From contig JBAZWO010000001.1 in the NCBI GenBank assembly GCA_041660305.1, positions 226,268 through 290,267 on the forward strand: a stretch of 64,000 bases of DNA. The letters run 5' to 3'. The translations under genes and the position numbers were made by a program. This document shows positions 29,717 through 47,575 of the stretch, piece by piece. The stretch's first letter is position 1, and the number at the start of each line of letters is the position of its first letter. The notes beneath the pieces are model-generated. The model saw only the letters and a list, made by a program, of their open reading frames with translations. It was not told the origin of the DNA and searched no databases. The stretch is from Patescibacteria group bacterium (lineage in GTDB: Bacteria > Patescibacteriota > Patescibacteriia > UBA9570).

Positions 29717-29850
29717 GGTTTCACCCCGTTCAGCTACATAGCCTACTATAATTTTTACCATTGTAAACCTTTTTGTAAACTTAATTGTAAACTGCGTCAC
29801 CAATTTAAAAAACACGCCCTAAGGCAGCGATGAAGGTGCTACTTTAACAA
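29717..29850 (-). pseudogene. Remnant of a Fic locus: 3'-terminal codons fused directly to the Fic upstream region (almost the whole CDS is deleted)
   Basis: 29717-29744 GGTTTCACCCCGTTCAGCTACATAGCCT matches 42627-42654, the Fic C-terminus (24/28 by eye). 29761-29792 carries the same triple TTGTAAAC array as 43653-43684. The downstream CCTAAGGC is also shared. Confidence 0.65.
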
Positions 29851-29962
29851 ACTCATCAAAAATACAATCGGATAAAGCACTTTGGCAATACCATTAAATG
29901 ATACTGGTGTTTTAAATACAACGGGATCTTTTTTATATAAAGCAGTGTCCAATTATAAATTA

Positions 29963-32281
29963 TCACTCTTCCCTTGATTTTAAGCCCTCTACCAGATCTA
30001 ATTTTTCAATTTTATTTCGAGCGTTTAACAACACGATACCAATAATGCTAATAAGTAAAATTAATGAATATAAATAACTACTAAAATAAATATTGTTAAT
30101 CATTTCAAATGAGTCAGTTGAAAATGCATTATTTACGGTAAGTAATACTAAGTTGCCAAATAAAAAACCAAATGGAATAGCAATTGACATTTGCCATAAT
30201 AATTCTTTTGCATACGCTAACAATATTTCTTTAGTGCCATAACCCATAACTTTCAATACCACAAACTCATAATTTCTGGATAGTAAGTTAACACTAGAAA
30301 TAGAATAAAGCACGGCAACACCCAAAACAATGGCGAAAAAAATAAGAATATAAATATATACTTTGAAAACATCCAACATTTTAATGAGATTTTTTTCGTC
30401 TTCCGATTTAGAAATAACTGATAGTACCTCTGGCTGTTTCTCGATATTCGACTTCACTATTTCAGAATTACTATTAATCTTAGCAAACACAGCATTGTAA
30501 TAGATAGTGGGCAGGCGAAATTTCTCTTTAGCAAAGTTAAAAGTTCCTAAAGCATAAAAACCAGTCGTTTGATTGGTAATATCTGAGATAGTAACCGTAG
30601 CATCGATAGTTTTATCGGATGTAGAGATTTGTATAGAATCGCCAACCTCAACATTGAGCATTCTGGCGAAGTAGCGCGGGATAGCAATTCCATTTTTAAT
30701 GTTTGCCGCATTACCAGAAATATTATTAATTTGATGAGTTGAATAAAAATCATCAGATAGAAACAGCGTGATATTTTTACTACTCGTACCATTCTCTATT
30801 TTAACAGGTAAAAGCAGCGTTTTTTTAGATTCCTTAATATTTTGATTATTGAGAAAAGACATCTCTTGAGTATAAGGAGTGTTATCAAGATAAATAGCCA
30901 AATCGTATTGAGCAACTTTTGCATAATAACCAGTAATAATTTCATTAAATGTATCCATAAAACCAAATGAAAATACCGCCAAAGTAATAGTGGCGATCAT
31001 ACCCAACACTGCAGCCCAAAATCTTCCATAGTTGCGTAAAGCTGTCTTCATGGCATAGCGGCTATTGAATGACAATCGACGCCACAAGAAAGTTTTTTGC
31101 ACAAAAATATCTTTACCATTTTTTGGTTTCTCCGCATGCATTGCCTCGGCTGGATTAATAGACAACACTTCTCGAATAGCAAGGCAGTTTGCGCTGACGC
31201 AAACGAACAAAGATACAATTGCCGGAATAAACCAATAATGATAAATAATCTGATAATGAAATTCAGGGACTTCAAACATTTCTTTGAATAAATTTAAAAT
31301 CACAGGACCAATAGAGAAGGAAAGGACAATGCCTAGAATAATGCCAACACCAGCTACAATACACGCATATTTTGTATACATCCAAAAAATATCTCTATCT
31401 TTTAGTCCTAATGCCTTCATAATGCCAATTTGTCTTCGATCGTGCAAAATATTTCTTTTTTGAACGACCAAAATGACAATTCCAGCAATAAAAAAGAATA
31501 CAATAGGGAAAATATAAGAGAAGGTGCTTAATTGCTGTAGATCATCCTTGTAGAAACTATAACTAAGAAAGTCTTCACGCTGAATTTCCTCACTAATTTT
31601 AGTTTGTCCGATAGCTATTTTTATTTTTGAGATAACCGTTTTTTGATCCCGCTTGCCATTAAAAGTAATCAAAATCTCATTAAAATTATCATGTTTTCCA
31701 AAAAAATTTGGTCGTACAACAACCGCTCCAAAATCTTTTGGATCTGCCATTGGCGTAATGATATTCTTAGCTAAGTAGACATATTCCGGTGAAGCTATTA
31801 ACCCAGAAATTTTGAGATCATATTCTTTACTGGCAAGCGTAAACTGAATCTTGTCGCCAGTTTTTAAACTATTAGCCTCAGCATATTTTTTGAGTAACGC
31901 ACATTCATTATCATCATTTGGTAGTTTGCCATCGTAAAGATATGGAATATTTATTTTTGGAGTAAGTGATGGTAGAGAAATGACTCGGAGTGTTACTTCA
32001 TCATTTTTACCATCTGCCACCATGCGGCCGGCTACTTCTTTAATGCCTTCAATTTCTTTAATCTTTTGTATATCCTCTGCTGTAAATGATAGACCATAGA
32101 AAACATAATCAGCCAATGAATAATCAGTATAATATTTTTCCGAAGCGATTTGATAATTTTGAGTAATGGTTTTTAATACGACGTAAAATCCAACAGCTAC
32201 CATAACGATTACAACAACTGACAAAAAAGAACCTAGCTGATTCTTTATTTGGCGATATAAAATTTTATTTGGCGTTTTCAT
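29963..32281 (-). CDS. FtsX/MacB-type ABC transporter permease (two FtsX modules)
   Basis: 772 aa with large extracytoplasmic loops and two 4-TM modules. Adjacent to a MacB/LolD-type ATPase. Confidence 0.8.
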   Translation of the reverse strand: MKTPNKILYRQIKNQLGSFLSVVVIVMVAVGFYVVLKTITQNYQIASEKYYTDYSLADYVFYGLSFTAEDIQKIKEIEGIKEVAGRMVADGKNDEVTLRVISLPSLTPKINIPYLYDGKLPNDDNECALLKKYAEANSLKTGDKIQFTLASKEYDLKISGLIASPEYVYLAKNIITPMADPKDFGAVVVRPNFFGKHDNFNEILITFNGKRDQKTVISKIKIAIGQTKISEEIQREDFLSYSFYKDDLQQLSTFSYIFPIVFFFIAGIVILVVQKRNILHDRRQIGIMKALGLKDRDIFWMYTKYACIVAGVGIILGIVLSFSIGPVILNLFKEMFEVPEFHYQIIYHYWFIPAIVSLFVCVSANCLAIREVLSINPAEAMHAEKPKNGKDIFVQKTFLWRRLSFNSRYAMKTALRNYGRFWAAVLGMIATITLAVFSFGFMDTFNEIITGYYAKVAQYDLAIYLDNTPYTQEMSFLNNQNIKESKKTLLLPVKIENGTSSKNITLFLSDDFYSTHQINNISGNAANIKNGIAIPRYFARMLNVEVGDSIQISTSDKTIDATVTISDITNQTTGFYALGTFNFAKEKFRLPTIYYNAVFAKINSNSEIVKSNIEKQPEVLSVISKSEDEKNLIKMLDVFKVYIYILIFFAIVLGVAVLYSISSVNLLSRNYEFVVLKVMGYGTKEILLAYAKELLWQMSIAIPFGFLFGNLVLLTVNNAFSTDSFEMINNIYFSSYLYSLILLISIIGIVLLNARNKIEKLDLVEGLKSREE

Positions 32282-32282
32282 T

Positions 32283-32987
32283 TTACCATTTTACCTTAGT
32301 AGGCTTTAACGGTTCTTTATTCTTATAAATTTCGACTACTTGGCCACTTTTCATTTTGATTACAAAATCGGCTATTTTAGCAATATCTTGATTATGGGTA
32401 ATAACAATGACTGATGTTATTCCATCTTCATGAATATGGTGTAAAACTTCTAATACATTGATGCCCGTTTTATAATCTAAAGCACCGGTTGGTTCATCAC
32501 AAAGTAATACTTCAGGATTTTTTGCCAGAGCTCGAGCAATCGAAATGCGTTGTTGTTCTCCGCCAGACAGTTCGCTTGGATAATGGTGCAAACGATGATC
32601 TAATTTCACTAACTGCAAAGTTTGTTTTGCTTGAATTTTCGGAAATTTCGCAATTTCTGTTGAAAATTCTACATTTTCTAATGCTGTTAAATTGGGCAGG
32701 AGATTATAAGACTGAAACACGAATCCAATATGTTTCTTCCTGTAATTCGTTAGCTCTTTGCGATTATAATTTGTAATTTTTTTATTTTTAAATAATACTT
32801 CACCAGCAGTCGGCTGATCCATGCCTCCTAATATATTTAACAAAGTACTCTTGCCTGAACCACTAGCACCCAAGATTACTATGAATTGGCCTTGAGGAAT
32901 TTCTAAATTAATATGGTCTAACGCTACCACCTTTGCTTCCTTCTCGCCAAAAATTTTAGTTACATTTTTTATTGTGTATAAAACCAT
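32283..32987 (-). CDS. ABC transporter ATP-binding protein (MacB/LolD type)
   Basis: [31 protein letters not shown]. Confidence 0.9.
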
Positions 32988-33289
32988 TTTTCTATTATAG
33001 CTAACTTAATTTACAATAACAATAGTTAGATCTTCCTCATTTCTATTTTCCCATAAAGAGGATCTTGACTAAAAAAATTTATTACTAATTGCATTATAAT
33101 TTTTCAATTTAACAATTTTAATTTTCCCAAAAATTTTTCTTGGATCAAAAATAACAAACAAAATAATTAGCAAAATTATCATTATAATACTAGCATCAAT
33201 ACCAAACCAGCCACCGGTAATAAAATTGTTACCAATTAAATCAGTATAATAAATTGATTGGGTAGCATGTTCACCATACACTGGCAAAC

Positions 33290-34025: not shown

Positions 34026-34075
34026 CTGACTACTTACGATGAAATTCGAACTTATTTTACCAACAATTTTAAGAT
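34026..34075. repeat. Copy of the CTGACTACTTACGAYGAAATTCGAAC repeat (P motif)
   Basis: 34026-34051 matches 45805-45831 and 43777-43802. The similarity continues for about 25 nt (CTTATTTTACCAACAATTTTAAG). Confidence 0.7.
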
Positions 34076-34087
34076 TTGAATATGCTA

Positions 34088-35239
34088 CTATTCTCCGACA
34101 ACTATTAGCTTTGGTATTCCCTTAGCCAAATCTGTTTCTGGATTAGTGAGATCGTGAATCGCTGAAACAAGTAAATCAGCGTTATACCGATACTGTTCGC
34201 CGTAGTGCGTGCCAGGATCATGGGTAATAAAATTATCACCATCATAACCTATAATTATGATCATGTGATAATACGGACCGCCGTTTTTATAATGTGGATT
34301 GTTGAGCGCCTTACCCAATACTGGCACTATTACTGGTTTACCGGCATTGAGTAATTGTTTAATGTGAATAACACTCACGTCATCCGACACTACGGCTGGT
34401 ATACCAATATAATCACGCGCCGTGCGAGCCGTAAGTTCGGCCGAAGTATCTTCATCAAAACCATATGCTTGCCTCTCCCAATTTACGATATTAATAATCT
34501 CCTGATCAGCTTGATCGGGCGTTAACACTGTACCGAGATAGTAGTGGCTAAGCATGACTAAAATAGCTTCCTCACAAGCTTCATTATATGGCGCTCCCCA
34601 ATTATTCAATGGCGCTTGAACTGTAAATGGTACGTTAAGCATTACCCGTCCGGCATAATTATAACTATACTCATCCACTAAGCTTTGCTGTTTGGTAAAT
34701 AACTTAACTTCACCATTAACTGCGCCCCAAACATTAACGGCGGTTCTATTATAAAATCGTTTTGTTTGACCGGGTAGCAGTAAAGTATTTTTTTTAATGC
34801 GCAATTGATTATTTCCTCCATCAGTAACCGACCAGCCCCGTAAAGATTGTGGTAATTGACCTAAGTTTTTTATAGTCACAAATTCTTTTGCATCTGGTTT
34901 ATTACTACGCTGGTGTAAAGCAATAATTTCAATATTTGGCTGTATACTAAGAAATTGCTGATTACTGATCCCTATGCCTTGATCAATTATTACTTGCCAG
35001 GCTTCTTCCGGAGTATGACTAGCGTAAGGATTGCCCAGCGCCTGTAAAATAGCTAAGGCATGTTTGGGTCGTCCGAGATAATATCGCCGCTGATCCAATG
35101 GATTAACATACCAGGCCTCACCGTGCGCCTCAACTTGCAGAAAAATATGGCCGGCGGTTTGCGCTCTGGTAGTAATTGGAAACATAGTCACTAGACTAAC
35201 GATAATATATAACCAAACGATATTGTAGTTTTTGTGCAT
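34088..35239 (-). CDS. Secreted protein with a lamin-tail-like domain and a C39-like (Peptidase_C39_2-type) cysteine peptidase domain
   Basis: Signal peptide. LTD-like FVTIKNLGQLPQSLRGWSVTD. C39-like pattern QAPLNNWGAPYNEACEEAILVM...HMIIIIGYDGDNFITHDPG. Confidence 0.6.
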   Translation of the reverse strand: MHKNYNIVWLYIIVSLVTMFPITTRAQTAGHIFLQVEAHGEAWYVNPLDQRRYYLGRPKHALAILQALGNPYASHTPEEAWQVIIDQGIGISNQQFLSIQPNIEIIALHQRSNKPDAKEFVTIKNLGQLPQSLRGWSVTDGGNNQLRIKKNTLLLPGQTKRFYNRTAVNVWGAVNGEVKLFTKQQSLVDEYSYNYAGRVMLNVPFTVQAPLNNWGAPYNEACEEAILVMLSHYYLGTVLTPDQADQEIINIVNWERQAYGFDEDTSAELTARTARDYIGIPAVVSDDVSVIHIKQLLNAGKPVIVPVLGKALNNPHYKNGGPYYHMIIIIGYDGDNFITHDPGTHYGEQYRYNADLLVSAIHDLTNPETDLAKGIPKLIVVGE

Positions 35240-35257
35240 TATTTTTTTACAGATTAT

Positions 35258-35773
35258 TTACTCTATGAGTGAAAAAGTTTGTATAATATCATTCACTTCT
35301 TTTTGAATATTAACATTTTGCTCTGCCATATCAGGATAACCTGCATAATCACCGCTGCCTGAATAATAATAACTATAAGTCGAATTTTCTGTTAAGTATG
35401 TCTGCGGATAGTCTATCACGGCCGAATCAGTCTTATCTTCATTTTTTACGATTTGAATTTGAATATAGCGTGCAGAATCATTTTCTGCCGTTAATCGAAC
35501 AGTTTTGTAGATTTTTGAACCTGATTCTACCTTTTCTTGAACAGCTCCCCAATTAGTAGGAAATACCAAAGAAAATCCATACGTTGAGTTTTTATATTCC
35601 CCCAAACTAGATACTGGCTCTGTCGTACTTTCCTCTGGCGCTGGAGTGGTGGTATTAGTGTTAGTTGGCGCTGTATTCACAGGTAAATTAGTATTTTGCT
35701 CTGTAGTGCATCCAGCTCCAATCAGGGTAACTAATCCTACCAGGCCGGTAATGAGATACGTTTTTTTGTGCAT
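35258..35773 (-). CDS. Lipoprotein, paralog family 1 of 3
   Basis: I prefer the start MHKKTYLITGLVGLVTLIGAGCT at 35773. It shares a near-identical domain with 35790..37250. Confidence 0.7.
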   Translation of the reverse strand: MHKKTYLITGLVGLVTLIGAGCTTEQNTNLPVNTAPTNTNTTTPAPEESTTEPVSSLGEYKNSTYGFSLVFPTNWGAVQEKVESGSKIYKTVRLTAENDSARYIQIQIVKNEDKTDSAVIDYPQTYLTENSTYSYYYSGSGDYAGYPDMAEQNVNIQKEVNDIIQTFSLIE

Positions 35774-35789
35774 AGATATGTTACTTACT

Positions 35790-37250
35790 TTATTGATTCC
35801 TAAATTTATCTGCAAAACTATTAACCAGCGCAGTTAAGTCTTTCCTAGTTTCCTCACTTGTAACTGGATTATAGCTAGCACTAAACCAATACCGGCTACC
35901 AGCTGAAGCACCTTGGATAATATATGCCTCATGACCCTGTGTATTATCACCCCTACTATAATTATATTTCACTGCGTTATAACCATTAATATCCAGTATC
36001 TCATAATCATCATAGTTATTGATATCAGTTCCTTCTACGCCATCTGCTGGAAAATAGATCTTTTCAGCATAAGTTTTGGCCCAAGCCACTAGATCACTTT
36101 TATCCTCAGAAGCTTTATATTCAGTGATACTAATTCCAGTAGTACTCGTAGCGGCTTTAGGATCGCTAGATTCAATCGATAACATAACTGCCTCTAGTGT
36201 GTCCACGCCTTCTAATTCTACATTATCCATTGCATCATTTAAACTATATTTCCCCGGATACTCAATGATAAAATTATCACTATCATAAGTGATTAAACCA
36301 GTATTCAATTTTAAGCTTGGTTCAACCACTTTTTTCACTTCGTCACAGCCAATAGGTTGTTTGGAGCCATCAGCACGTCCGCTGCCACATGAACTTTCAA
36401 ACAGAAGCCAATCTTTATTAAGCATTTTTGGATAGTTGCCTTCACCTGCCGCACATATATCAAAGTCTCTCTTGAATTGGTCAGCAGAAGTGTAACCAGC
36501 TTTGTTGGGTAATAGAGTAACCACAAAAGTGTCAGCTTTTTGGATTGCGTCTAAGTACTGAAAACTGTAGATTATTTTTGTTGTACCGCTAAATTTTGCA
36601 ACCAATTCATCGAAGTATAGGAGGGCGATACCGGCTTCTTGTTCGGTCCCGCATTCATCTGCGTTGGCTTTTAACTGCTCGGCAGTATAATCAAATGGGG
36701 CTGTCGTTTTTGAAACTGACGCATTAACGCCAGTAGTTGAATAAGACAGGGGTTCAGTTGATTCGTCTGTCAGAGAAAATGTTTTGCTGATTTCCTTTAC
36801 TTCTTTTTGAATATCAAAATATTTTTGTTCTTCCATATCAGGATAACCAGCATAATCACCGCTGCCTGAATAATAATAACTATAAGTCGAATTTTCTGTT
36901 AAGTATGTTTGCGGATAATCTATTACAGCCGGATCAGTCTTATCTTCACTTTTTACGACCTGAATTTTAATAAATCGAGCCGAGTCGTCTTCTGCTGATA
37001 ATTGAATAGAAGCGTTGATTTTTCCACCATTTTCTTGTCTTTCTTTTATTGTTCCCCAACTTTCAGGAAATACCAAAGAGAATCCATACGCTGAGTTTTT
37101 ATATTTGTATTGATTTGTTTCAGAAACTGATGTGTCTGCTCCTGTTTCTGTGGCAAGGCTGGTGTTGGTAGTTTGTTCTGTAGTGCATCCGGCTCCAAGC
37201 AGGATAAATAATCCTACCAGGCCGGTGATGAGATACGTTTTTTTGTTCAT
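35790..37250 (-). CDS. Lipoprotein, paralog family 2 of 3
   Basis: MNKKTYLITGLVGLFILLGAGCT. Nucleotides 36834-36957 match 35327-35450 with about 7 mismatches in 124 nt. Confidence 0.7.
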   Translation of the reverse strand: MNKKTYLITGLVGLFILLGAGCTTEQTTNTSLATETGADTSVSETNQYKYKNSAYGFSLVFPESWGTIKERQENGGKINASIQLSAEDDSARFIKIQVVKSEDKTDPAVIDYPQTYLTENSTYSYYYSGSGDYAGYPDMEEQKYFDIQKEVKEISKTFSLTDESTEPLSYSTTGVNASVSKTTAPFDYTAEQLKANADECGTEQEAGIALLYFDELVAKFSGTTKIIYSFQYLDAIQKADTFVVTLLPNKAGYTSADQFKRDFDICAAGEGNYPKMLNKDWLLFESSCGSGRADGSKQPIGCDEVKKVVEPSLKLNTGLITYDSDNFIIEYPGKYSLNDAMDNVELEGVDTLEAVMLSIESSDPKAATSTTGISITEYKASEDKSDLVAWAKTYAEKIYFPADGVEGTDINNYDDYEILDINGYNAVKYNYSRGDNTQGHEAYIIQGASAGSRYWFSASYNPVTSEETRKDLTALVNSFADKFRNQ

Positions 37251-37303
37251 AGATGTATTTAGTTTAATTGTCTTATTGTAGAGTCTGCTTAATTGTTGAT
37301 TGA

Positions 37304-39593: not shown

Positions 39594-39788
39594 GCCTTTC
39601 GTGAAAAAAGCGAGCAAGCGCTCGCGTCTCATAAGAGATAGCTCTGGATACTCCAGAGGCGGAATGAGAATAATGAGACTTACTTGCAAATGCAAAATCT
39701 TGTTCTTCGTTCTTGTGCACGTAAACTTTGTTGCGTGCAGAAGAACAGAAATAACCCAATCAAGGGTTGTTTCTATCACGGTTACTAT

Positions 39789-39941
39789 GTGTTTCGCTCT
39801 TTGAAATAAAGATGCATTCAAGTCTAAATTATAAATTTTAATAATCTATATTTTAGATCTGAGTGCATCGCTTTACTGAATTTTTGGTAAAGTACGGATG
39901 CATCAGGCAGGAGCCCGATTATTGGGCCAAAAGGAGATGGG
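39789..39941 (+). promoter_or_regulatory. Conserved cassette leader, copy 2
   Basis: Identical to copy 1 through hairpin 1. Hairpin 2 has a diverged sequence but keeps its pairing. Hairpin 3 is GCCCGATTATTGGGC. Confidence 0.8.
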
Positions 39942-40628: not shown

Positions 40629-40664
40629 TCCCAAAGCTCTCGTCAACCTTGACGAGGCAGAATC

Positions 40665-40880
40665 AAAACGCTGGAGCTCTGAAAGTCTAAACACTTTCAT
40701 CTCCACTAATTTCTAGGGCACAGAAAAGTGGTTCGCTCTTTAAAAATAAAGATGCATTCAAGTCTAAGTTATAGATTTTAATAATCTATATCTTAGATCT
40801 GAGTGCATCGCTTCGCTAATATTTAGCAAAGTACAGATGCATCAGGCAGAGGCCCAATCATTGGGTCAAAAGGAGAAGAG
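40665..40880 (+). promoter_or_regulatory. Conserved cassette leader, copy 3 (core 40728-40880) with a 63-nt 5' extension shared with copy 4
   Basis: The extension AAAACGCTGGAGCTCTGAAAGTCTAAACACTTTCATCTCCACTAATTTCTAGGGCACAGAAAA contains the hairpin GGAG..GAAAGT/ACTTTC..CTCC. Confidence 0.8.
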
Positions 40881-41498
40881 ATGAGAAATTTATTTGGTTT
40901 TTGTTTTGTTGTTAGTTTTTTATTTTTTTTCGGTTGTTTGGAGGACGTCCCCACGGGTTGTGAGGATTCCACTACACCGTGCCCGATGGAGGTGCCAACA
41001 CCCCTGCCCGGGTGTGTGGCGTCCCCGATCTCAGGGGACGAGCTCCTGAGTTTCTTCCCTGAGTGGGAAGGAACCGCGAAGTTTGTATCGATATATGAAG
41101 AATGTTCCGGAGACTGCTCCGGGACTTTCACTTTCCAGTCGGGAGTGTTCCCAGGTCAAACGGATGGAAATGCCTCTATAAGCATGGAGGGCTCGTTCGG
41201 AGACATGTCTTCTTGCGATGGGGGCTACCTGCCGTTAACCGCAACTTTTGATAGTTGTGGAGGTATGATGGCGAAAGGAGATTTCGGGGCTTTTGGGACC
41301 ATTTATTTAGAGGGTCAGTTTGCTGAAGAGGAGACCACTTTAGAGTGGTCTAGTAATGGGTGGGGGGATGGGGAGGATATTAATTTCCTCTACCTCCGCA
41401 TAGATTACGAAGACGATTGGATCGTCTCGACCACCACGAGACAAGATCAAAATGACGAGGTAGTGTGGGAGGAGTCATGGGACTCCGGCTGTAATTAA
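40881..41498 (+). CDS. High-GC lipoprotein precursor, unknown function
   Basis: SD plus ATG. MRNLFGFCFVVSFLFFFGC. Cys-containing 205-aa product with no recognised domain. Confidence 0.6.
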   Translation: MRNLFGFCFVVSFLFFFGCLEDVPTGCEDSTTPCPMEVPTPLPGCVASPISGDELLSFFPEWEGTAKFVSIYEECSGDCSGTFTFQSGVFPGQTDGNASISMEGSFGDMSSCDGGYLPLTATFDSCGGMMAKGDFGAFGTIYLEGQFAEEETTLEWSSNGWGDGEDINFLYLRIDYEDDWIVSTTTRQDQNDEVVWEESWDSGCN

Positions 41499-41638
41499 AA
41501 AACCCCACAACGCTTTTGTCTCCGTTTGAGCGATCGGCGGTATAGCCGATAACAAATGGAGAGCCGCCGCGGCGGAGCAGACTGCCGCAACAAACCATAT
41601 TTTTTCTGTCACCTGCGAAGGTAGGGAAAAATTGGTTA

Positions 41639-41850
41639 AAAAACGATGGAGCTCTGAAAGTTTAAACACTTTCATCTCCACTAATTTCTAGGGCACAGAA
41701 AAGTGGTTTGCTCTTTGAAATAAAGATGCATTCAAGTCTAAGTTATAAATTTTAATAATCTATATTTTAGATCTGAGTGCATCGCTTCGCTAATATTTAG
41801 CAAAGTACAGATGCATCAGGCAAAGGCCCACTTTAGGCAAAAAGGAGAAG
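41639..41850 (+). promoter_or_regulatory. Conserved cassette leader, copy 4 (core 41703-41850) with the shared 5' extension
   Basis: Near-identical to copy 3 in the extension and to copy 1 in the core. Confidence 0.8.
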
Positions 41851-42480
41851 ATGATGAAAAATGTAGCACTGGTCGTTGGCTTTCTGCTGGTTGCCGGAAT
41901 GGTGTTCTTTTTCTTCGGTTGTGGCGCTTACGGAGAGGATGACGATTCCACTGATTCCACCGCTACGCCAGGTGAGTGTGTTGAGGGGGAGACGGAGGAG
42001 TTAGCAGATCTGTGGCATCCGGATAGGGACACCGATGGCTTCGGTGCGGAGGACGGGGTAATCCTCTCCTGTACCCAACCTGTCGGTTACGTCGCCGACA
42101 ACACCGACTGCGATGACGCCGACGCCACGGTCTATCCCGGCGCGACCGAGGTCTGTGACGGGAAGGACAACGACTGCGATGGCGCGATCGATGAAGGCTT
42201 CGATACGGACGCAGACGCAGACGGATACACCGTCTGCACTGACTGCGACGACGATGACCCGGCTGTTGGCGACCCACCTACCTGGTATGAGGACGCCGAC
42301 GACGACGGGTACACACAACCTTTTAATGGGGTCAAGTCGTGTACCCGGCCCGAGGAAGGCTGGGTGATTGGGTCTGAAGAAGCCGACTGCAACAAGGGTG
42401 ACGCCAGCGTCTACCCTGGCGCCCCTGAGATCTACGACGGGAAGGACAATGACTGCGACGGCGAAATTGATGAGGGTTGA
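41851..42480 (+). CDS. High-GC lipoprotein precursor with tandem Cys-rich MopE-like (putative metal-binding) repeats
   Basis: MMKNVALVVGFLLVAGMVFFFFGCG. Repeats DCDDADATVYPGATEVCDGKDNDCDGAIDEG and DCNKGDASVYPGAPEIYDGKDNDCDGEIDEG. Line 42121-42180 has 39/60 G+C. Confidence 0.75.
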   Translation: MMKNVALVVGFLLVAGMVFFFFGCGAYGEDDDSTDSTATPGECVEGETEELADLWHPDRDTDGFGAEDGVILSCTQPVGYVADNTDCDDADATVYPGATEVCDGKDNDCDGAIDEGFDTDADADGYTVCTDCDDDDPAVGDPPTWYEDADDDGYTQPFNGVKSCTRPEEGWVIGSEEADCNKGDASVYPGAPEIYDGKDNDCDGEIDEG

Positions 42481-42514
42481 TGTCTACGTAAAGTAGGTAT
42501 TAGCTCTCGTAGCT

Positions 42515-42551
42515 CTCGCTTAGAACATAGTGTTCCAAGCGAGATTTTTTT
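42515..42551 (+). terminator. Rho-independent terminator closing the cassette array
   Basis: CTCGCTTAGAACAtagTGTTCCAAGCGAG followed by ATTTTTTT. Confidence 0.8.
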
Positions 42552-42599
42552 AAAATAATATCGGTCGTATAATCCTACTAAATAAAGCTTTCCGTATAG

Positions 42600-43622
42600 T
42601 TACAACAAAACATAATATCGTCCTTTAGTTTCACCTCGTTCAGCCGCATAGCCTTTTTGGACTAAGGCACTTAATAAGCGGTGGGCATACTGGCGAGATA
42701 CATGAAACTCTCGTTCAATATCACTAGCCGTTAATTGTTGCCGTTGCTGTAGTAATGCATAAGCAACTTGCTCTTTATTGGATAATCTTTGAGCAACATT
42801 TACGTGTTGAATAGCTTGCTCTGCTTTAGTTAAAGCGCTTTGTAAGGAATACCGAACTCCAGCTGTAAAATATTCTAACCAAGTTGTTTTATCTCCACTA
42901 TCGGCAGTATGTAAGCTATCTGAATATTCTTTACGATTCACATCATACCAATCATCCAACACGAAATATTTATTAATTTCGTAGTTATGCTGTAATAAAA
43001 TTAAAGCGGTTAATAATCTACATGTCCGGCCGTTACCATCAATAAAAGGATGTAGATAAACAAATTCGTGATGAAATATTCCGGCCGTTAAAATTGTTGG
43101 CACGTTAGCAGTGTCTTCTAACCATGAAAATAATTGTTGCAACGCTATTATAATTTTTACCGCTGAATGATAAGGCGGTTCATGTTTTACATGAAGTATA
43201 AGTTTCCCATTAACTTGCCTGCGTTTGCCAACTACAATACGTTTATTACGAATCGTGCCGGCAATATCATTATTTACTCCAACTAATAATTGTTGATGCA
43301 CGCTTAATAAATATTCAAGGTTAAGTGATTTTTTTACATCTTGGGATAAATTACGTAAAATATCAAAATAGTTACGCACTTCTTTTTCATCACGATTCAC
43401 TGGCACGCGTTCATCTAGCAACAAATTCGTTACTTCCGGTAACGATAATGAATTTCCTTCAATACTATTGGAGATATAAGCCGATTGAATTAAATTATCA
43501 CGTTCTAAGTTGAGCTGTAGTTTCTTTGGCAAACGCAAACTTTCCAACCGACCATACAAACGCTCTATTTTCGTTAAATTCTGTAATAACGTAGAAGTTA
43601 ACGTATAATTTGGTTTGAACAT
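42600..43622 (-). CDS. Fic-family protein (AMPylase-type) with a C-terminal winged-helix domain
   Basis: Fic motif HPFIDGNGRTCR. C-terminal wHTH-like LTASDIEREFHVSRQYAHRLLSALVQKGY. Confidence 0.9.
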   Translation of the reverse strand: MFKPNYTLTSTLLQNLTKIERLYGRLESLRLPKKLQLNLERDNLIQSAYISNSIEGNSLSLPEVTNLLLDERVPVNRDEKEVRNYFDILRNLSQDVKKSLNLEYLLSVHQQLLVGVNNDIAGTIRNKRIVVGKRRQVNGKLILHVKHEPPYHSAVKIIIALQQLFSWLEDTANVPTILTAGIFHHEFVYLHPFIDGNGRTCRLLTALILLQHNYEINKYFVLDDWYDVNRKEYSDSLHTADSGDKTTWLEYFTAGVRYSLQSALTKAEQAIQHVNVAQRLSNKEQVAYALLQQRQQLTASDIEREFHVSRQYAHRLLSALVQKGYAAERGETKGRYYVLL

Positions 43623-43652
43623 ATAATCTAACTATAGCACAAAAATAAATAA

Positions 43653-43684
43653 TTGTAAACCTTTTTGTAAACTTAATCGTAAAC
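43653..43684 (-). promoter_or_regulatory. Three direct TTGTAAAC repeats at a 12-nt period upstream of Fic (candidate operator)
   Basis: TTGTAAAC 43653-43660, TTGTAAAC 43665-43672, TCGTAAAC 43677-43684. They start 31 nt upstream of the Fic start codon. Confidence 0.5.
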
Positions 43685-43705
43685 TATATGTCAGATTTAA
43701 AAGCG

Positions 43706-43873
43706 CTCCTAAGGCTATAGCTCTGAGCGAGTTCGAACTAATGAGCGGAAGCGAATTGTGAGAACGAGTCGAAGAGCCGACTACTTACGACGAAATTCGA
43801 ACATTTTTTACTCAATACCCGAATGCCAATTAAGCGCGGCGGAAGGAGGGGTGCGGGGAGGAATTCCGCCGCG
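43706..43873. repeat. Composite repeat R' (L-like segment, P motif, purine mirror loop closed by a GC stem)
   Basis: L-like segment 43706-43777 (...GAGCGAG...AGTCGAAGAGC). P motif CGACTACTTACGACGAAATTCGAAC 43778-43802. Hairpin CGCGGCGG (43835-43842) with CCGCCGCG (43866-43873), 10 nt downstream of the racemase stop. Confidence 0.7.
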
Positions 43874-43882
43874 AGCCGCGCG

Positions 43883-44584
43883 TTAGACTCTGTAATCTAA
43901 ATACTTTTTGATAGTTTCCTCTGCTAGAGCCTCACTGGAATCAATTATTGTAAAACCTTTCATAGTTTTTACTATTTTAGTTATGTCGGTGCATGCAATG
44001 ATAATAGTATCGATTTCCTCTTCTTTTAAATATTTTGATAATTTTTTAGTGATAGTTGAAAGTTTATCGTTTTTCTCGCCATTTTTAACACTTTGGATTA
44101 AGTTATTAACCTCTTTTTGCCATTCTTCTTTAAGAACTATTTCTATGTTTTGTTTTTTTATTCCTTTTTGATAAATGTTCGCATCAATTGTTGTTCTTGC
44201 GGCAAAAAGAGCCACTCTTTGGGACGTTTTATTCAGTTTTTTTATGGTTGAATCAATAATGTTTAAAAGAGGTGTTTTTATACAATTTTGCAGATTATCA
44301 AAATATTTGTGTGCTGAATTGCATGGTATTGATATGAAATCAACGCCTGTACTTTCTAGTTTCTGAAGTCCTTTGCGAATGGTTGATTCCATTTCTTTGT
44401 CATCTATTGTTTGATTTACGTAAAAAGGTGTTGGCAATGAATATATTATAATATGTGGAAAATCGATATCATTGCGTGCACCATATTGCTTTTGACATTG
44501 TTCAATTACAAGATCAAGAAATGGAGAAGTTGATTTTGGTCCCATTCCAGCGAGAATTCCGATGATTATTTTTTTATTGGGCAT
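43883..44584 (-). CDS. Aspartate/glutamate racemase-family protein
   Basis: GILAGMGPKST and IPCNSAHKYF (first catalytic-Cys motif), plus IIACTD (second Cys). Confidence 0.8.
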   Translation of the reverse strand: MPNKKIIIGILAGMGPKSTSPFLDLVIEQCQKQYGARNDIDFPHIIIYSLPTPFYVNQTIDDKEMESTIRKGLQKLESTGVDFISIPCNSAHKYFDNLQNCIKTPLLNIIDSTIKKLNKTSQRVALFAARTTIDANIYQKGIKKQNIEIVLKEEWQKEVNNLIQSVKNGEKNDKLSTITKKLSKYLKEEEIDTIIIACTDITKIVKTMKGFTIIDSSEALAEETIKKYLDYRV

Positions 44585-44846
44585 ATCTGTATTTAGATTA
44601 TGGCGCTCTACAGTTGTTTTTTACTTTACTTAAATTTCAGTTTTGTTTTTCCACAACGTTCAATTGACAAGATATGTTAAAAGTATATACTAGCTCTAAA
44701 TCCTATGCAATATAGCTTTACCAGCCAAAATAATAATAATCAAAATAACCACTTCCAACGGCTGGCCATGTTTTAATAACATATAAATCTCTAACTTACT
44801 TAAAGATGCAAACCAGCCAAACAGCTGGATTTTTTAATTTTATTAA

Positions 44847-45080
44847 CTAACTTATTCTATTTATGAAACAAGTTACAAAACAACTCGTAAAATGGATGAA
44901 CGTCATATGGACAAGTCCGCTTATGAAATATATCTTGATTTGGCCAAAGAGAAACTAATTCCGCAAACCGCTGGTGCTGGTTTTGGCTTACAGCGCTTAC
45001 TGCGCTATTTAACGGGTATTCGCACCATGGAACAAGTTGTATTATTTCCACGCTCACCTCGCGAACCAATTATCTTTTAA
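44847..45080 (+). pseudogene. C-terminal fragment of a class II aminoacyl-tRNA-synthetase-like gene (AsnRS/AspRS/AsnA-like motif 3)
   Basis: The open frame ends ...YLDLAKEKLIPQTAGAGFGLQRLLRYLTGIRTMEQVVLFPRSPR (motif 3 GxGxGxxR and FPR). There is no catalytic core upstream, and a stop lies at 44844-44846. Confidence 0.65.
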
Positions 45081-45096
45081 CGAAATATCTTAACTT

Positions 45097-45705
45097 ATGT
45101 CTATATTCATTTCTTTATTCATTATTGGCTTTACAGCCGCGGCTCTACCTGGTGCCGTACAAACTACAGTGTTTTTATCTACGCTTCAAGGCAAAACAAA
45201 AGAAGGAATTAAAGTAGCTCTCGGGGCCGCACTCATGGATGGAATTTATCTTTTTCTGGCCTATTATGGAATAGTTGAATTTATCACCAAATTTACAGCT
45301 ATTAAAATAATTATCGGGCTATTTGGTTTTGGTTATATGCTGTGGTTGGGCATTACTGGATTAAAGGCTGGGTTACATAAAAATACAGAAAAAAATGATA
45401 AAATTATTCATCGCGGTTTCTTTAGCGGCGTCTTACTTGTATTATTACATATTCCTACCCTGCTCTACTTTATTGGTGTGGCAGGTAGTGTGTTTCATGA
45501 TCGTATTTCCCTGCTTACCGTTGTGCTGGGCGGATTCAGTCTATTCGTTGGTGCAATTCTATGTTTTTTGGTTGTAGTCTTAATTGCTTGGTTAAGCAAA
45601 CATTACGGTAAAGCAGGATTGATTAAATGCTTACACCTTGCCTCTGCAACAGTGTTAATTGCTTTTGCAATAAAATTATTGGTTGATCTTATAAAATTAA
45701 TGTAA
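45097..45705 (+). CDS. LysE/RhtB-family amino-acid exporter
   Basis: 202 aa, about 6 TM helices. The N-terminus FIIGFTAAALPGAVQ is typical of the family. Confidence 0.7.
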   Translation: MSIFISLFIIGFTAAALPGAVQTTVFLSTLQGKTKEGIKVALGAALMDGIYLFLAYYGIVEFITKFTAIKIIIGLFGFGYMLWLGITGLKAGLHKNTEKNDKIIHRGFFSGVLLVLLHIPTLLYFIGVAGSVFHDRISLLTVVLGGFSLFVGAILCFLVVVLIAWLSKHYGKAGLIKCLHLASATVLIAFAIKLLVDLIKLM

Positions 45706-45744
45706 CTAAAAAAATCCCCTTGCAGTGTGTTGTGGAAAAAGAAC

Positions 45745-45927
45745 GATCAAACAAGGGCTACAGCCCTGAGCGAGGAAGGAACGCAGTGAGTGACGAGTCG
45801 AAGGGCTGACTACTTACGACGAAATTCGAACTTATTATACCCAAAATTCAAGTGAAACAGAATAGGGCGCGGCGGGCAAAAAGGAAGGGGGTTTCGGGGG
45901 AAGGAATTTTTGCCCGTTTTTTCTCTT
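45745..45927. repeat. Composite repeat R (L segment, P motif, terminator hairpin)
   Basis: L segment 45745-45806 is about 80% identical by eye to 47442-47505. P motif 45807-45831. Hairpin CGGGCAAAAA (45873-45882) with TTTTTGCCCG (45907-45916), then T6. The loop is the mirror repeat GGAAGGGGG..GGGGGAAGG. Confidence 0.8.
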
Positions 45928-45948
45928 GATGAATCAGCAAGTTTATTT

Positions 45949-46632
45949 TTAATCTTTAAATGTATATCTATTAGTAAATATCAAAAATCCTAACCAGGCA
46001 TTGCCAAGGCCTATCCCAGCGTAACCAAGAGTGGCAAATTTAGCTGGAGTGAACAAGGCTGTTCCAATTATTAAACCACCCATAATAAATAATCCTCCTA
46101 TTAATTTAGGAAATATTCTAGAGCGCATAATGTAACTCCCCCACAGTGCGTACGTTATAATCAGGAGAAAAAAACCAATGATAATGATTATTGGTGCCAT
46201 GCCTAATAAATTATTTTGAAAAATAACTTCAAATAAATTTTCTGAATGTTGATTTGTTTGTTGAACGGGATCATATTTAGCAAGAATTGTATTTGTAAAA
46301 CCATCAACGAATAACAAGCCACCGTATAAAGCTTGTGTAAAAAGAACGAGTACAAAAGCAAACAACAAACCTTTTTTATAGTTATTTTTTGCTATCGTAA
46401 AAAAAGTAGCGATAATCGGAAAAATGAGTAATAATGAACAAACTCCACCAAGAACATGCGCTTCTGCATGAGCAGAACTTCTGACAATAATACTGGCTGC
46501 ATCACGACCACCATGCAAGAAAAATTGGTAAAAAGGCAGAATGATACCAGGTATGATTCCTATCACGGCAAGATAGCGAATGATTTTATTAATGAGAGTC
46601 TCTTGATTAAGAATGTTATTTTTTGAAGTCAT
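45949..46632 (-). CDS. Polytopic membrane protein, unknown function
   Basis: 227 aa with about 6 hydrophobic helices. Downstream of marR in the same orientation. Confidence 0.5.
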   Translation of the reverse strand: MTSKNNILNQETLINKIIRYLAVIGIIPGIILPFYQFFLHGGRDAASIIVRSSAHAEAHVLGGVCSLLLIFPIIATFFTIAKNNYKKGLLFAFVLVLFTQALYGGLLFVDGFTNTILAKYDPVQQTNQHSENLFEVIFQNNLLGMAPIIIIIGFFLLIITYALWGSYIMRSRIFPKLIGGLFIMGGLIIGTALFTPAKFATLGYAGIGLGNAWLGFLIFTNRYTFKD

Positions 46633-46803
46633 AAAAAATATCTATTTATTCTGTTTATATAATTTATATACATTCATTACAAGAAAAGTATTATATGTTG
46701 GCAGGCGGTTGTTATTTTGTGTGTTTAGAATGAATCATTTTTATGAGTTTATATACTGGCCAAAAGATGAGTAAGGGAAGTAATAGGATATGCATAATTG
46801 TAA

Positions 46804-47229
46804 TTATTTTTGATTAAACATTTTATCAAATAATCCTAATAATATATCTTGTTCATTTACACTTAATGGCTTAAGCAATTCTTGATAGAGTTCTGAGTGT
46901 TTCTTTTTCATCAGGCGGTAAATTTTTTCTCCTACTGGAGCCATAGTAATGTAGATTACTCTTCGATCTTGTGTTGAATTAATACGTTTTACCAAACGTT
47001 TTGTAACAAGTTTATCAACAATAATTGACGCATTGCTTATTGAAAGCTGAAGAGCATTAGCTATATCATTCATCTTTTTCTCTCCATGTTGTCCAATAAA
47101 ATAGATAATACGAAATTCCTGAATATTTATATCATAAGGCACAAGGTTGAGGATGGCAGACTCATTTTTACTTAAATAAGAGAATAGAGCATGTATATAG
47201 TAATCGAGCTTGTTTGTAGTAGTATTCAT
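46804..47229 (-). CDS. MarR-family transcriptional regulator
   Basis: 141 aa with a winged HTH (KMNDIANALQLSISNASIIVDKLVTKRLVKRINSTQDRR). Confidence 0.85.
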   Translation of the reverse strand: MNTTTNKLDYYIHALFSYLSKNESAILNLVPYDINIQEFRIIYFIGQHGEKKMNDIANALQLSISNASIIVDKLVTKRLVKRINSTQDRRVIYITMAPVGEKIYRLMKKKHSELYQELLKPLSVNEQDILLGLFDKMFNQK

Positions 47230-47282
47230 ATACTTTAAATTTTAAACTATTTAAAGTATAAACCTTTTTACAATTTTGTCAA
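47229..47282 (-). promoter_or_regulatory. marR promoter with an overlapping perfect 11-bp inverted repeat (candidate MarR operator)
   Basis: On the - strand: TTGACA (47282-47277), a 16-nt spacer, then TATACT (47260-47255). IR TATACTTTAAA (47229-47239) with TTTAAAGTATA (47250-47260). Confidence 0.65.
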
Positions 47283-47317
47283 GAGCTAGCGACTATCATT
47301 GTTCTAATGCACGAGAA

Positions 47318-47349
47318 AAGAGAAAAAACGGGCAAAAATTCCTTCCCCC
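47318..47349. repeat. Inverted copy of a 32-nt segment of repeat R
   Basis: AAGAGAAAAAACGGGCAAAAATTCCTTCCCCC is the exact reverse complement of 45896-45927, checked base by base. Confidence 0.9.
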
Positions 47350-47441
47350 TTTACTTCTTTCAACCGCTCAAAACGAACACCTTCTAGCCAACAGCTTGAG
47401 TTTTTCTTTATCGCCATTGATTAAAGCTTCTTTTTTGGCAC

Positions 47442-47505
47442 GATCAAACAAGGGGCTATAGCCCCGAGCGAAAAACGAACACAGTGAGTTTTTCAGTCGA
47501 AGGGC
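47442..47505. repeat. L segment of the composite repeat, immediately 3' of tRNA-Gln
   Basis: GATCAAACAAGGGGCTATAGCCCCGAGCGAAAAACGAACACAGTGAGTTTTTCAGTCGAAGGGC. It contains the palindrome GGGGCTATAGCCCC and the stem GAAAAAC/GTTTTTC. Confidence 0.75.
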
Positions 47506-47575
47506 TGGGTCGGTAGGATTCGAACCTACGATGACGGGGCCAGAACCCGTTGCCTTACCACTTGGCTACGACCCA
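47505..47575 (-). tRNA. tRNA-Gln (anticodon CUG), CCA not encoded
   Basis: Manual fold. Acceptor UGGGUCG/CGACCCA with U1-A72. D arm GCCA-AGUGGUA-AGGC. Anticodon stem ACGGG/CCCGU with loop UUCUGGC. T arm GUAGG-UUCGAAU-CCUAC. Discriminator G. Confidence 0.85.

Follow-up and report, generated by a model that had tools for sequence, protein, structure and literature searches.

A probable decayed array of serine recombinase elements beside a tRNA-Gln gene in a Patescibacteria genome

Modules and repeats of the accessory region

The window analyzed here is a stretch of 64,000 nucleotides from the genome of a Patescibacteria group bacterium. It contains an accessory region that abuts a tRNA-Gln(CTG) gene on the negative strand. 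The initial annotation had placed this gene at 47505-47575; Rfam matched these coordinates (66.9 bits), and ARAGORN gave 47502-47576. The region had also been described as four modules delimited by same-orientation repeats, here termed L and P. The gene content of all four was as described, and the repeats bound three of them (E1 to E3), whereas the module of CPBP plus an ABC pair has no demonstrable outer P copy. The features, named according to the reading developed below, are as follows.

29760-29826, positive strand: partial L43 copy, 84-97% identical to 43652-43720, the distal part of extended L43
34026-34079, positive strand: P'34, putative half-site, shortened tail LTTYDEIRTYFTNNFKI and stop
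34080-43651: E1 cargo; C39-like peptidase, three paralogous lipoproteins, ArsR, four high-GC lipoprotein genes and Fic
43652-43779, positive strand: extended L43, apparently what is left of a recombinase 3' end, about 40 codons
43780-43882, positive strand: P'43, putative half-site, tail ..TTYDEIRTFFTQYPNAN with stop at 43831-43833, and terminator stem GCGGCGGAA/TTCCGCCGC
43883-45744: E2 cargo; racemase, aaRS-like pseudogene and LysE
43883-44584, negative strand: Asp/Glu racemase (E2)
about 44603-45080: class II aaRS-like pseudogene (E2)
45097-45705, positive strand: LysE (E2)
45745-45808, positive strand: L45, apparent P-type arm relic fused to P'45, 82% identical to L47
45809-45927, positive strand: P'45, putative 23-nt half-site, remaining recombinase C-terminal tail (..TTYDEIRTYYTQNSSETE, stop at 45863-45865) and intrinsic terminator (45866-45927; stem CGGGCAAAAA/TTTTTGCCCG, then a T run)
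45940-47306, negative strand: E3 cargo; MarR regulator and membrane protein
45949-46632, negative strand: DUF4386-like membrane protein (E3)
46804-47229, negative strand: MarR regulator (E3)
47318-47349, negative strand: inverted half-terminator, a perfect 32-nt copy of the P45 terminator's distal half (45896-45927; E 4e-13)
47350-47441: 92-nt spacer between the probable deletion scar and L47
47442-47507, positive strand: L47, apparent recombinase 3'-end relic (P-type arm) joined to the tRNA gene

P was found at the three sites where it had been noted, all in one orientation (34027-34051, previously given as 34026-34051; 43778-43802; and 45807-45831), with zero matches expected from shuffles. 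A degenerate trace proposed at 29838-29848 proved to be at chance level, with an equally good alignment in 608 of 1,000 shuffles. The repeat exceeds its first description. On the positive strand, about 35 further conserved bases lie 3' of P and are followed by a GC-rich stem-loop (43834-43882 and 45866-45927) whose stems covary. P'34 has neither an L arm nor a GC-rich terminator and is read as the outermost junction of the array.

The identity between L47 (47442-47505) and L45 (45745-45806), estimated by eye at about 80%, was 82% (53/65) in a formal alignment. The more diverged copy at 43706-43777 (L43) was likewise recovered, with 64% identity to L45 and 58% to L47, and all three pairwise scores far exceeded 300 shuffles. 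L43 reaches further upstream, to 43652, and the distal part of this extended copy now overlaps the promoter-like region of the Fic gene. No P follows the partial copy at 29760-29826, whose membership in the array is uncertain.

Recombinases of related genomes and relics in the window

On the positive strand, P codes for ..L-TTYDEIRT[YFH][YF].. and then a stop in 13 of 13 distinct instances, which come from the window and from three or more further Kerfeldbacteria genomes. Several differences among the instances are synonymous (ACT/ACG/ACA, TCA/TCG, AGT/AGC and GAC/GAT). No recombinase gene had been seen in the window, and none emerged here: the 50 window open reading frames (ORFs) scanned with Pfam contained no recombinase, integrase or transposase domain, Phage_integrase-type domains included, and a large serine recombinase (LSR) profile had no match in the six-frame translation. 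A protein combining Resolvase, Recombinase and zinc-ribbon domains, as expected of an LSR, is thus not encoded in the window, but is encoded at the related loci L009/L012, L004, L015 and L016. The window therefore holds only relics of LSR elements.

Intact recombinases of 500-520 aa were found on related Kerfeldbacteria and other CPR (Patescibacteria) contigs. Their frame continues directly into a tRNA complement (Gln-TTG or Asn-GTT), and the tail is found detached at the opposite end of the element. At L009/L012 and L004, a 522-aa protein with Pfam Resolvase, Recombinase and Zn_ribbon_recom domains enters the complement of tRNA-Gln(TTG) (..EKIPELL/GKRDSNPRMPG; the slash marks the junction). 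An adjacent 68-aa relic, ..EKLPWL/LTTYDEIRTHFTKYSSAME and a stop, is 75% identical to recombinase residues 452-496. L012 keeps the full order of tRNA, recombinase, cargo and P, with a second P, oriented as the recombinase, 5.2 kb from the tRNA. Among the best 120 homologues, 46 have tRNA read-through ends (DSNP/DSNQ/GFEP..), 43 stop at the junction and 15 have free tails in agreement with that of the window (for example, WLS/LLNEIRTFYQMNPDQ). The recombinase in relatives sits exactly where an integration model predicts. Since its frame enters the tRNA complement and its tail lies at the far end, attP is placed inside the recombinase 3' end, with P as the P' half-site.

We regard the identity of P as a recombinase tail as established: it comprises roughly the final 18 codons (L-TTYDEIRTYF...stop) of an LSR gene, with the terminator next, and appears to serve also as the P' half-site of the element. 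In a database of 5.8 billion proteins, none of full length ended in TTYDEIRT, so for this exact subfamily the link between tail and recombinase rests on relics and related tails. L is evidently the P-type arm, a brief remnant of where the recombinase gene ends at its 3' side. At L015, a tRNA-Gln(CTG) gene is followed by an 85-nt inverted copy (95%) of the recombinase 3' end, homologous to L47, and the L47 region GGGGCTATAGCCCC corresponds to the codons of '..RGEAPSEA..' in intact recombinases. Extended L43 is one frame with a single TGA: LNRKLYVRFKSAPKAIALSEFELMSGSEL, the stop, then ERVEEP/TTYDEIRT. Against this, the brevity and frameshifts of the L arms preclude a significant protein match, extended L43 coming closest (tblastn E 0.04), and no recombinase remnant longer than L was detectable in the window. 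At L017, which counts against the integration model, other DNA adjoins the same recombinase 12 nt upstream of the junction.

Two of the modules recur elsewhere. Window positions 45940-47306 (MarR and the membrane protein) share 95.1% nucleotide identity with positions 9039-10405 of array M1 in another Kerfeldbacteria genome, where the segment is bordered by P and L/P. Positions 44603-45212, in the aaRS/LysE module, are 82-90% identical to L005/L010, beside a P43-type tail; at those loci the aaRS-like gene is uninterrupted, at 308 aa, and no racemase is present. The similarity to other genomes begins and ends beside P and L copies. The database contained no dnaX product more than 60% identical to that of the window.

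Attachment-site geometry and alternative readings

The similarity between P and the tRNA gene ends after 47507, and ATTCGAAC, a motif common to P and the tRNA 3' end, begins 11 nt from there. AT[TC]CGAAC starts at +16 in 7/7 P' sites and at +11 in 4/4 tRNA ends (Gln-CTG twice, Gln-TTG and Asn-GTT). The shared motif is thus about 5 bp nearer the crossover in attB than in attP, which is the offset known for LSRs: in LI integrase the ZD motif lies at 16-24 in attP and at 11-19 in attB (PMC3783163). We suggest that the T-arm sequence ATTCGAAC is the recognition motif, its distance from the crossover being 5 bp shorter in the tRNA than in P', that it may be read by the ZD (zinc-ribbon) domain, and that the final ~20 nt of tRNA-Gln(CTG) would be the B' half-site of attB.

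P is not a displaced fragment of the target tRNA. As had been suspected, the alignment between the two is confined to GTTCGAAT and CAG with a 5-nt gap between them; P encodes a recombinase tail, and the recombinase is of the serine rather than the tyrosine type. The initial annotation had counted this mismatch and the missing recombinase as objections to serial integration. Both facts stand, but the serine recombinase in relatives resolves them as objections.

LSRs catalyze recombination between att sites through a 2-bp staggered crossover. The expected hybrid borders, attL (B/P') and attR (P/B'), were found and are complete in L012, where an x/P' junction lies at about 12003 and the recombinase P arm meets the tRNA at 6830. 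The identical 21 nt that precede both the tRNA and the second P in L012, left of the junction, are unusual for LSR sites and make the crossover position approximate. The window junctions L47/tRNA, L45/P', L43/P' and x/P'34 appear to agree with the hybrid-site pattern.

The region from 34.0 to 47.6 kb is therefore probably a decayed tandem array of at least three LSR-integrated elements at the 3' end of tRNA-Gln(CTG): E1 (34.08-43.65 kb), E2 (43.88-45.74 kb) and E3 (45.94-47.31 kb). Insertion would be by LSRs of a CPR-wide family that places attP in the final ~20 codons of the recombinase gene. As P' half-site, ACTACTTACGAYGAAATTCGAAC would also encode the native C-terminal tail (TTYDEIRT..), with the terminator of the gene next, and attB would be the tRNA gene end plus its trailer. 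Integration would spare the tRNA, set the P-type arm (L) beside it and leave the tail and terminator (P) stranded at the opposite end of the element. With every further integration at the tRNA, earlier elements would shift outward and internal L/P' junctions would arise. The recombinase genes would since have been deleted, which would leave the array immobile unless the genome encodes a cognate recombinase elsewhere.

E3 would retain a scar of this loss. The inverted half-terminator at 47318-47349 probably marks a deletion that removed the recombinase, the tail and the first terminator half, in agreement with the layout in relatives, where cargo lies between inverted tail-plus-terminator copies. 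The spacer at 47350-47441 may occupy the place of the recombinase promoter and 5' end in intact L015. The earlier proposal of serial integration at a tRNA-proximal att site held in its core, as comparative evidence marks the repeats as module borders, whereas we infer the order and seriality of the integrations, their occurrence in this lineage and the acceptance of the L/tRNA site as a target by the recombinase.

Several observations count against this reading. The outer end of the array is ill-defined because P34 has no left L arm and the 29.8-kb copy has no P. Three independent assemblies of the source organism are 100% identical across the region and so give no sign of current mobility. 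To our knowledge, canonical LSRs recombine attP with attB only, and serial insertion beside an L arm requires attP x (L/B').

The last two points also weigh on an unlikely alternative, in which the modules are recombinase-less cassettes, each with a complete attP-like site (L/P' and terminator), taken up and released at the tRNA by a recombinase acting in trans from elsewhere, as an integron-like or CIME-like (cis-mobilizable element) array. In its favor, the L arms are alike in length, within defined limits (64-126 nt), and do not end at random deletion points, and every intact relative keeps a second, inverted attP-like copy within the element. Array M1, which spans 16 kb and lacks both a recombinase and a tRNA, has four or more P-bounded modules, and E3, tRNA-proximal in the window, is internal there. 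The scar in E3, however, agrees with the loss of a resident recombinase, and no trans-acting recombinase was identified for the source genome.

It is quite improbable that the L/P' copies mark no module borders but are pseudogene remains of recombinase 3' ends, scattered through duplication or homologous recombination, with cargo acquired by other routes. The partial L copy at 29.8 kb and the inverted fragment at 47318-47349 are pieces that were moved or duplicated, and P34 has no L arm; yet all three P copies share one orientation, convergent with the tRNA, as integration predicts, cross-genome similarity respects the P and L copies, and the element order is intact in L012. We give very little credence to P and L as ordinary intergenic regulatory repeats (a negative-strand promoter with a conserved leader, or portable terminators) unrelated to recombination: TATAAT/TAAAAT-like hexamers precede P on the negative strand, L hairpins score terminator-like (that of L47 also for the tRNA, on the negative strand) and the GC-rich stem-loops are plausible terminators, but positive-strand variation follows a coding pattern with a conserved stop, the same tail is joined to recombinase 3' ends in relatives, negative-strand transcripts fold no better than shuffles (z -0.1 to -1.7) and no Rfam family matched.

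Two further classes were rejected. A tyrosine-integrase island of the Islander type does not fit, as no tyrosine integrase was found in the 50 ORFs scanned and relatives carry serine recombinases. In integrons and CALINs, cassettes lie between attC sites, whose single strands fold as imperfect palindromes, and IntI, a tyrosine recombinase, is present or close by; here the L/P' strands fold no better than shuffles, no IntI was found, and the sites are asymmetric and partly coding.

Comparison with known systems and implications

The CPR recombinases share the Resolvase, Recombinase and Zn_ribbon domain set of phage large serine integrases (A118/LI, Bxb1 and phiC31), with a weak but specific match to the A118 integrase C-terminal domain, although they are at most 31% identical to any phage record. 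Both groups have short att sites with little attP-attB identity and a motif 5 bp closer to the center in attB (PMC3783163). Unlike the phage enzymes, the CPR family appears to use a tRNA gene 3' end as attB and an attP inside the recombinase ORF, and its elements carry a second, inverted attP-like copy. According to a standard reference, serine integrases do not target tRNA genes (PMC4383910), and a limited literature search found no later report of ones that do.

SSV-type tyrosine integrases of archaeal viruses and plasmids also have attP within the integrase ORF, so that the integrase gene is split or altered when the element enters a tRNA gene, with a detached piece left at the other end (PMC7253208). 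The likeness extends to the ORFs that read through the junction and the free tails described above. It is an analogy only, because those enzymes belong to the tyrosine family, whereas the relatives here carry Resolvase, Recombinase and Zn_ribbon_recom domains. The SSV-type gene is cut into two large pseudogene halves and its attP holds a copy of a tRNA segment; in the CPR family the exchange is limited to about 18 codons at the C-terminal end and does not require a tRNA copy.

Staphylococcal SCC composite islands at rlmH are serial tandem elements inserted by the CcrAB/CcrC LSRs, with short same-orientation repeats between them, and some members (pseudo-SCC) lack recombinase genes. They differ in that the target is a protein-coding gene 3' end and the recombinase genes are internal, without an att site. 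ICE/CIME accretion likewise produces array units without an integrase. Tandem arrays are also recorded among the tRNA-anchored islands in Islander (PMC4383910). Such arrays resemble the window in their tRNA 3'-end anchor, with the newest unit nearest the tRNA and older, decayed, integrase-less units outward, but they involve tyrosine integrases and repeats that are displaced tRNA fragments, whereas the window repeat is the recombinase gene's own tail.

More tentatively, CPR bacteria may harbor a large undescribed class of LSRs with four linked properties: targeting through a T-arm motif, attP in the ORF, a second inverted attP-like site and target regeneration. If so, use of the universally conserved tRNA T-arm as the motif would make many tRNA genes targetable, and integration would swap the enzyme's C-terminal tail. 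Inverted copies of the recombinase 3' end would then lie on both sides of its gene, and inverted tail-plus-terminator copies on both sides of the cargo. The second site would permit two integration states or flipping between a tRNA-complement fusion and the native tail, a built-in directionality switch. Regeneration of a usable target at the tRNA would yield integron-like cassette arrays, that of the window included.

The proposed array would explain an integrase-less accessory region of a Patescibacteria genome, and it points to a family of thousands of recombinases that has apparently gone undescribed. LSRs make do with short sites and require no host factors, and a conserved tRNA-end attB could yield integration tools for hard-to-manipulate CPR bacteria and perhaps other organisms. 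For CPR genomes, a recombinase ORF running into a tRNA complement and a detached IRT-type tail would mark the two ends of an element, a rule for islands that finders relying on tRNA fragments would miss.

Repeats beside the tRNA gene

The repeats found next to the tRNA-Gln(CTG) gene (47502-47576, - strand) are genuine remnants left by site-specific integration. The 25-nt repeat P, listed three times in the initial annotation, occurs at 34027-34051 (P34), 43778-43802 (P43) and 45807-45831 (P45) in a single orientation, with no copy expected in shuffled sequence. The arm repeat L had been put at about 80% identity. L45 and L47 are 82% identical, and L43, which carries a 13-nt insertion, is 58-64% identical to the other two; all scores are far above those of shuffled controls. 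A further trace of P proposed at 29838-29848 is indistinguishable from chance; a real copy of 43652-43720 does lie next to it, at 29760-29826. The reported absence of a recombinase held for all 50 ORFs searched with Pfam and for a six-frame translation searched with a large serine recombinase (LSR) profile.

The low-GC (about 36%) source genome belongs to the Patescibacteria (CPR), near Candidatus Kerfeldbacteria. Two further assemblies agree with the window at 100% identity, an ENA contig over 19 kb and a Logan contig over 1.45 kb. No DnaX more than 60% identical to that of the window was found in other genomes when a collection of 5.8 billion proteins was searched. An exact 22-mer of P is nevertheless present in three other Kerfeldbacteria MAGs and several metagenome contigs, giving 13 distinct instances with those of the window; the IMG/VR viral contigs contained no copy.

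Read in the direction of the tRNA, the conserved part lies upstream of P and ends abruptly right after GTAGTCAG. On the + strand, P reads as the end of an ORF, L-TTYDEIRT-[Y/F/H]-[Y/F]-T.., with a conserved stop followed by a GC-rich stem-loop carrying a run of T. Several of the differences among the copies are synonymous (ACT/ACG/ACA, TCA/TCG, AGT/AGC and GAC/GAT). Since the frames containing P are open for just 18-100 codons, they are detached gene ends.

Other readings of P were considered. Its resemblance to a degenerate tRNA 3' half requires a 5-nt gap and covers 11 shared positions only; we reinterpreted it as att-site geometry. On the - strand, P was first read as a promoter with a conserved leader, or as a small RNA in which a conserved 5' handle precedes a terminator. 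Both readings were rejected in view of the + strand frame, the conserved stop, the synonymous variation and folding no better than that of shuffles. The sharp end of conservation after GTAGTCAG had prompted comparison with an IS200/IS605 right end or a guide-RNA scaffold, a reading abandoned since TnpB/IscB genes are absent from the surroundings and a recombinase tail explains the boundary. At its gathering threshold Rfam returned only the two tRNAs, and relaxing E to 5 added nothing above noise. An integron attC site was rejected because the sites are asymmetric and partly coding, their strands fold no better than shuffles, and no IntI was found.

A recombinase gene at the tRNA in relatives

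In two loci from other genomes (L004, and L009, whose sequence is the same as L012), a 522-aa protein with Resolvase, Recombinase and Zn_ribbon_recom domains adjoins an opposite-strand tRNA-Gln(TTG). Its frame enters the tRNA complement, with ..AVAGTELVDLEKIPELL before the junction and GKRDSNPRMPGPKPGALPLG after it. Just upstream lies a divergent 68-codon relic that copies the last 45 codons of the gene at 75% identity and goes on as ..EKLPWL and, past the junction, LTTYDEIRTHFTKYSSAME-stop. L012 has a second P in the orientation of the recombinase, 5.2 kb from the tRNA, and an identical 21 nt (GAAAAAATTCCTGAGTTGCTG) precedes both the tRNA complement and this second P.

The recombinase family comprised 7,830 hits at E <= 1e-20. 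Among the best 120 (54-100% identical), 46 had tRNA-complement ends (DSNP, DSNQ, DSNL or GFEP), 43 had a stop at the junction, and 15 had free tails, such as WLS followed by LLNEIRTFYQMNPDQ or LLDKIRTFFRENPDADF and WLR followed by ILNEIRTFFKENPEQE, which match the window tail DEIRT[YF][YF]..N... The protein database contained no full-length recombinase with the exact TTYDEIRT tail. From the read-through, the relics and the free tails, we infer that attP lies within the 3' end of the recombinase gene, and that P is both the P' half-site of attP and the code for the native C-terminal tail. Integration would swap this tail for tRNA-encoded residues and leave the tail and terminator stranded at the far end of the element. 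Such a double constraint, as protein tail and as binding site, would account for the constancy of P among genomes with DnaX proteins at most 60% identical to that of the window.

The recombinase is a distant LSR: it matches the C-terminal domain of the A118/LI integrase at E 3e-4, and its identity to any phage record is at most 31%. No account of this CPR family was found in the open-access literature.

The origin of L is indicated by L015, a locus from a different CPR lineage. There, tRNA-Gln(CTG) adjoins an inverted repeat, 85 nt long and 95% identical, of the 3' end of the recombinase gene itself, beyond which an intact recombinase (P0177) with its native tail reads away from the tRNA. L47 aligns with this relic, its hairpin GGGGCTATAGCCCC corresponding to GGGGCTTCGCCCC, which codes for ..RGEAP.. 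in the intact gene. The frame of an extended L43, interrupted by a single stop, reads LNRKLYVRFKSAPKAI...ERVEEP and then TTYDEIRT across the junction; it is collinear with ..ERKVFVEYKNPWKLL...TNWL and SLLDKIRT of P0177 at E 0.04, which alone is not significant. Neither tblastn nor a 110-sequence profile detected recombinase remnants in the window, and the C-terminal fragments of the 120 homologues gave a single collinear, non-significant match at 43672-43830. L is thus best read as a short relic of the recombinase 3' end, the P-type arm, and not as a repeat of the tRNA trailer. Its hairpins are also terminator-like for the tRNA, a role that could be the reason for their retention.

The stems of the terminators at 45866-45927, 43834-43882 and about 4230-4290 of L015 covary between copies. 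Their loops are large, purine-rich mirror repeats (GGAAGGGGGTTTCGGGGGAAGG, GGAGGGGTGCGGGGAGG), a style kept in distant lineages; they could form G-quadruplexes or triplexes, or have a role beyond termination.

Site geometry and inverted repeats

The motif AT[TC]CGAAC starts 16 nt past the junction in all seven P' sites examined (three in the window, one each in L012 and L016, two in L015) and 11 nt past it in each of the four tRNA ends (window Gln-CTG, L012 Gln-TTG, L015 Gln-CTG and L016 Asn-GTT). At the att sites of the Listeria LI integrase, the motif for the zinc-ribbon domain spans positions 16-24 of attP and 11-19 of attB, where it thus lies 5 bp nearer the centre (PMC3783163). That P and the tRNA share only ATTCGAAC and GGCTG, previously remarked upon, is the pattern expected of a serine integrase. 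The sequences diverge at the last three tRNA nucleotides (..CAG-3'), so the tRNA gene remains whole without requiring a copy of it. The reconstructed attP spans about 60 bp centred on the joint between ..GAGTTGCTG and ACTACTTACGACGAAATTCGAAC; by eye, no convincing dyad symmetry was seen between the L and P' arms.

Inverted copies of the gene's own 3' end (85-147 nt, 90-97% identity) flank the recombinase gene body in all four recombinase-bearing loci, and in L012 and L015 the tail and terminator stand in inverted orientation on either side of the cargo (175-218 nt, 85-98% identity). One state, seen in L012, L004 and L016, has the recombinase fused to the tRNA, with the tail on the relic; in the other, seen in L015, the relic adjoins the tRNA and the recombinase retains its tail. 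These two states differ by inversion of the recombinase gene or, put another way, by which of two inverted attP-like sites the same circle used to integrate. That they form a functional switch is speculation.

L017 (Ga0208373_1044587), from another sample, carries a recombinase 100% identical over 1,971 nt to that of L012, but after ..GAAAAAATT a different sequence replaces the tRNA, joined 12 nt upstream of the junction. Compared with L012 6839-8809 and 11759-11802, the opposite end of the cargo adjoins the relic, as seen in flanks of which about 100 nt and 44 nt are available. This arrangement suggests cargo inversion and an alternative junction in natural populations. Given the 21-nt identity left of the L012 junction and the alternative joint of L017, the crossover position is not fixed exactly.

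A probable array of modules at the tRNA

Outward from the tRNA, in descending coordinates, the window reads as follows.

tRNA-Gln joined to L47
92-nt spacer
47318-47349, distal half of the P45 terminator repeated in inverted orientation (perfect, 32 nt, E 4e-13)
MarR and membrane protein
terminator and P'45 joined to L45
LysE, aaRS-like pseudogene and racemase
terminator and P'43 joined to extended L43
Fic through C39
P'34 joined to unrelated flank

Repeated insertion at the tRNA would yield the internal junctions of L with P' seen here. The first unit fits the L015 state after a deletion of the recombinase, the tail and half of the terminator. To our knowledge, canonical LSRs do not recombine attP with a hybrid site of L and B'. 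The serial integration originally proposed for four modules fits three. At the outer end, P34 lacks an L arm, and no P accompanies the 29.8-kb L fragment; the CPBP/ABC module is therefore not established as a unit.

Two modules recur elsewhere. Window positions 45940-47306 (MarR and membrane protein) are 95.1% identical to 9039-10405 of M1, located on the 86-kb metagenome contig Ga0208373_1000327, which matches the Kerfeldbacteria RIFOXYC2_FULL_38_9 scaffold MHKJ01000030 at 97-100%. The M1 copy has a P on one side and a junction of L with P on the other; its array, with at least four P copies, contains neither a tRNA nor a recombinase in the 27 kb examined. Positions 44603-45212 have a counterpart of 82-90% identity in RIFCSPLOWO2_02_FULL_42_19, beside a tail and terminator of the P43 type; that copy has an intact class II aaRS-like gene of 308 aa and lacks the racemase. 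Similarity between genomes starts and stops at the repeats and is far above that due between such distant genomes. Beside the intact aaRS-like gene in the relative's copy of this module, L005 383-2109 contains an IS200-like Y1 transposase ORF of 121 aa and a transposase-like ORF of 405 aa, both putative and recognised by sequence only.

Several other features were observed within and around the island. Four + strand lipoprotein genes with 48% GC lie at 39000-42500 in the Fic-to-C39 module, two with MopE-type metal-binding motifs and one C39-like. Each is preceded by a copy of one AT-rich block of ~140-190 nt ending at the ribosome-binding site; three copies are 88-95% identical and the remaining one 69%. 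The set looks like a secreted-protein multigene family with one promoter and leader cassette. At 35258-38634, three tandem paralogous lipoprotein genes have a common signal peptide and N-terminal region (D2, D4 and D18; 76-87%) and different C-terminal parts. An 855-aa VirD4/TraG-type coupling-protein homologue (TrwB_AAD_bind, T4SS-DNA_transf, TraG-D_C) is encoded at 52410-54977, between dnaX and tRNA-Arg(CCG) and two genes from the side of the island. The histidine-kinase gene flanking tRNA-Gln (47632-48930) has a paralogue 33.5 kb away at 14104-15768, 73-74% identical in nucleotides over stretches of about 100 nt (D5, D6). Three copies of a C-rich motif of 41 nt, TACCTCTATCCCCAACCCTTTCCCCTAA (G-rich on the - strand), lie at 13918-13958, 19158-19198 and 60722-60762, about 20-120 nt upstream of the - strand gene starts of mraZ, an NHL-repeat protein and a P-type ATPase; the motif may serve these genes as a common regulatory or leader element.

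Among known systems, SCC composite islands are the closest analogue of tandem arrays in which some members lack a recombinase. The closest mechanistic relatives of the CPR recombinase are the phage LSRs, and the closest analogue for an att site within an ORF is provided by the SSV-type tyrosine integrases (PMC7253208). The window can be read as a fossil, yet it brings to light a variant, apparently undescribed, of an element type already known.
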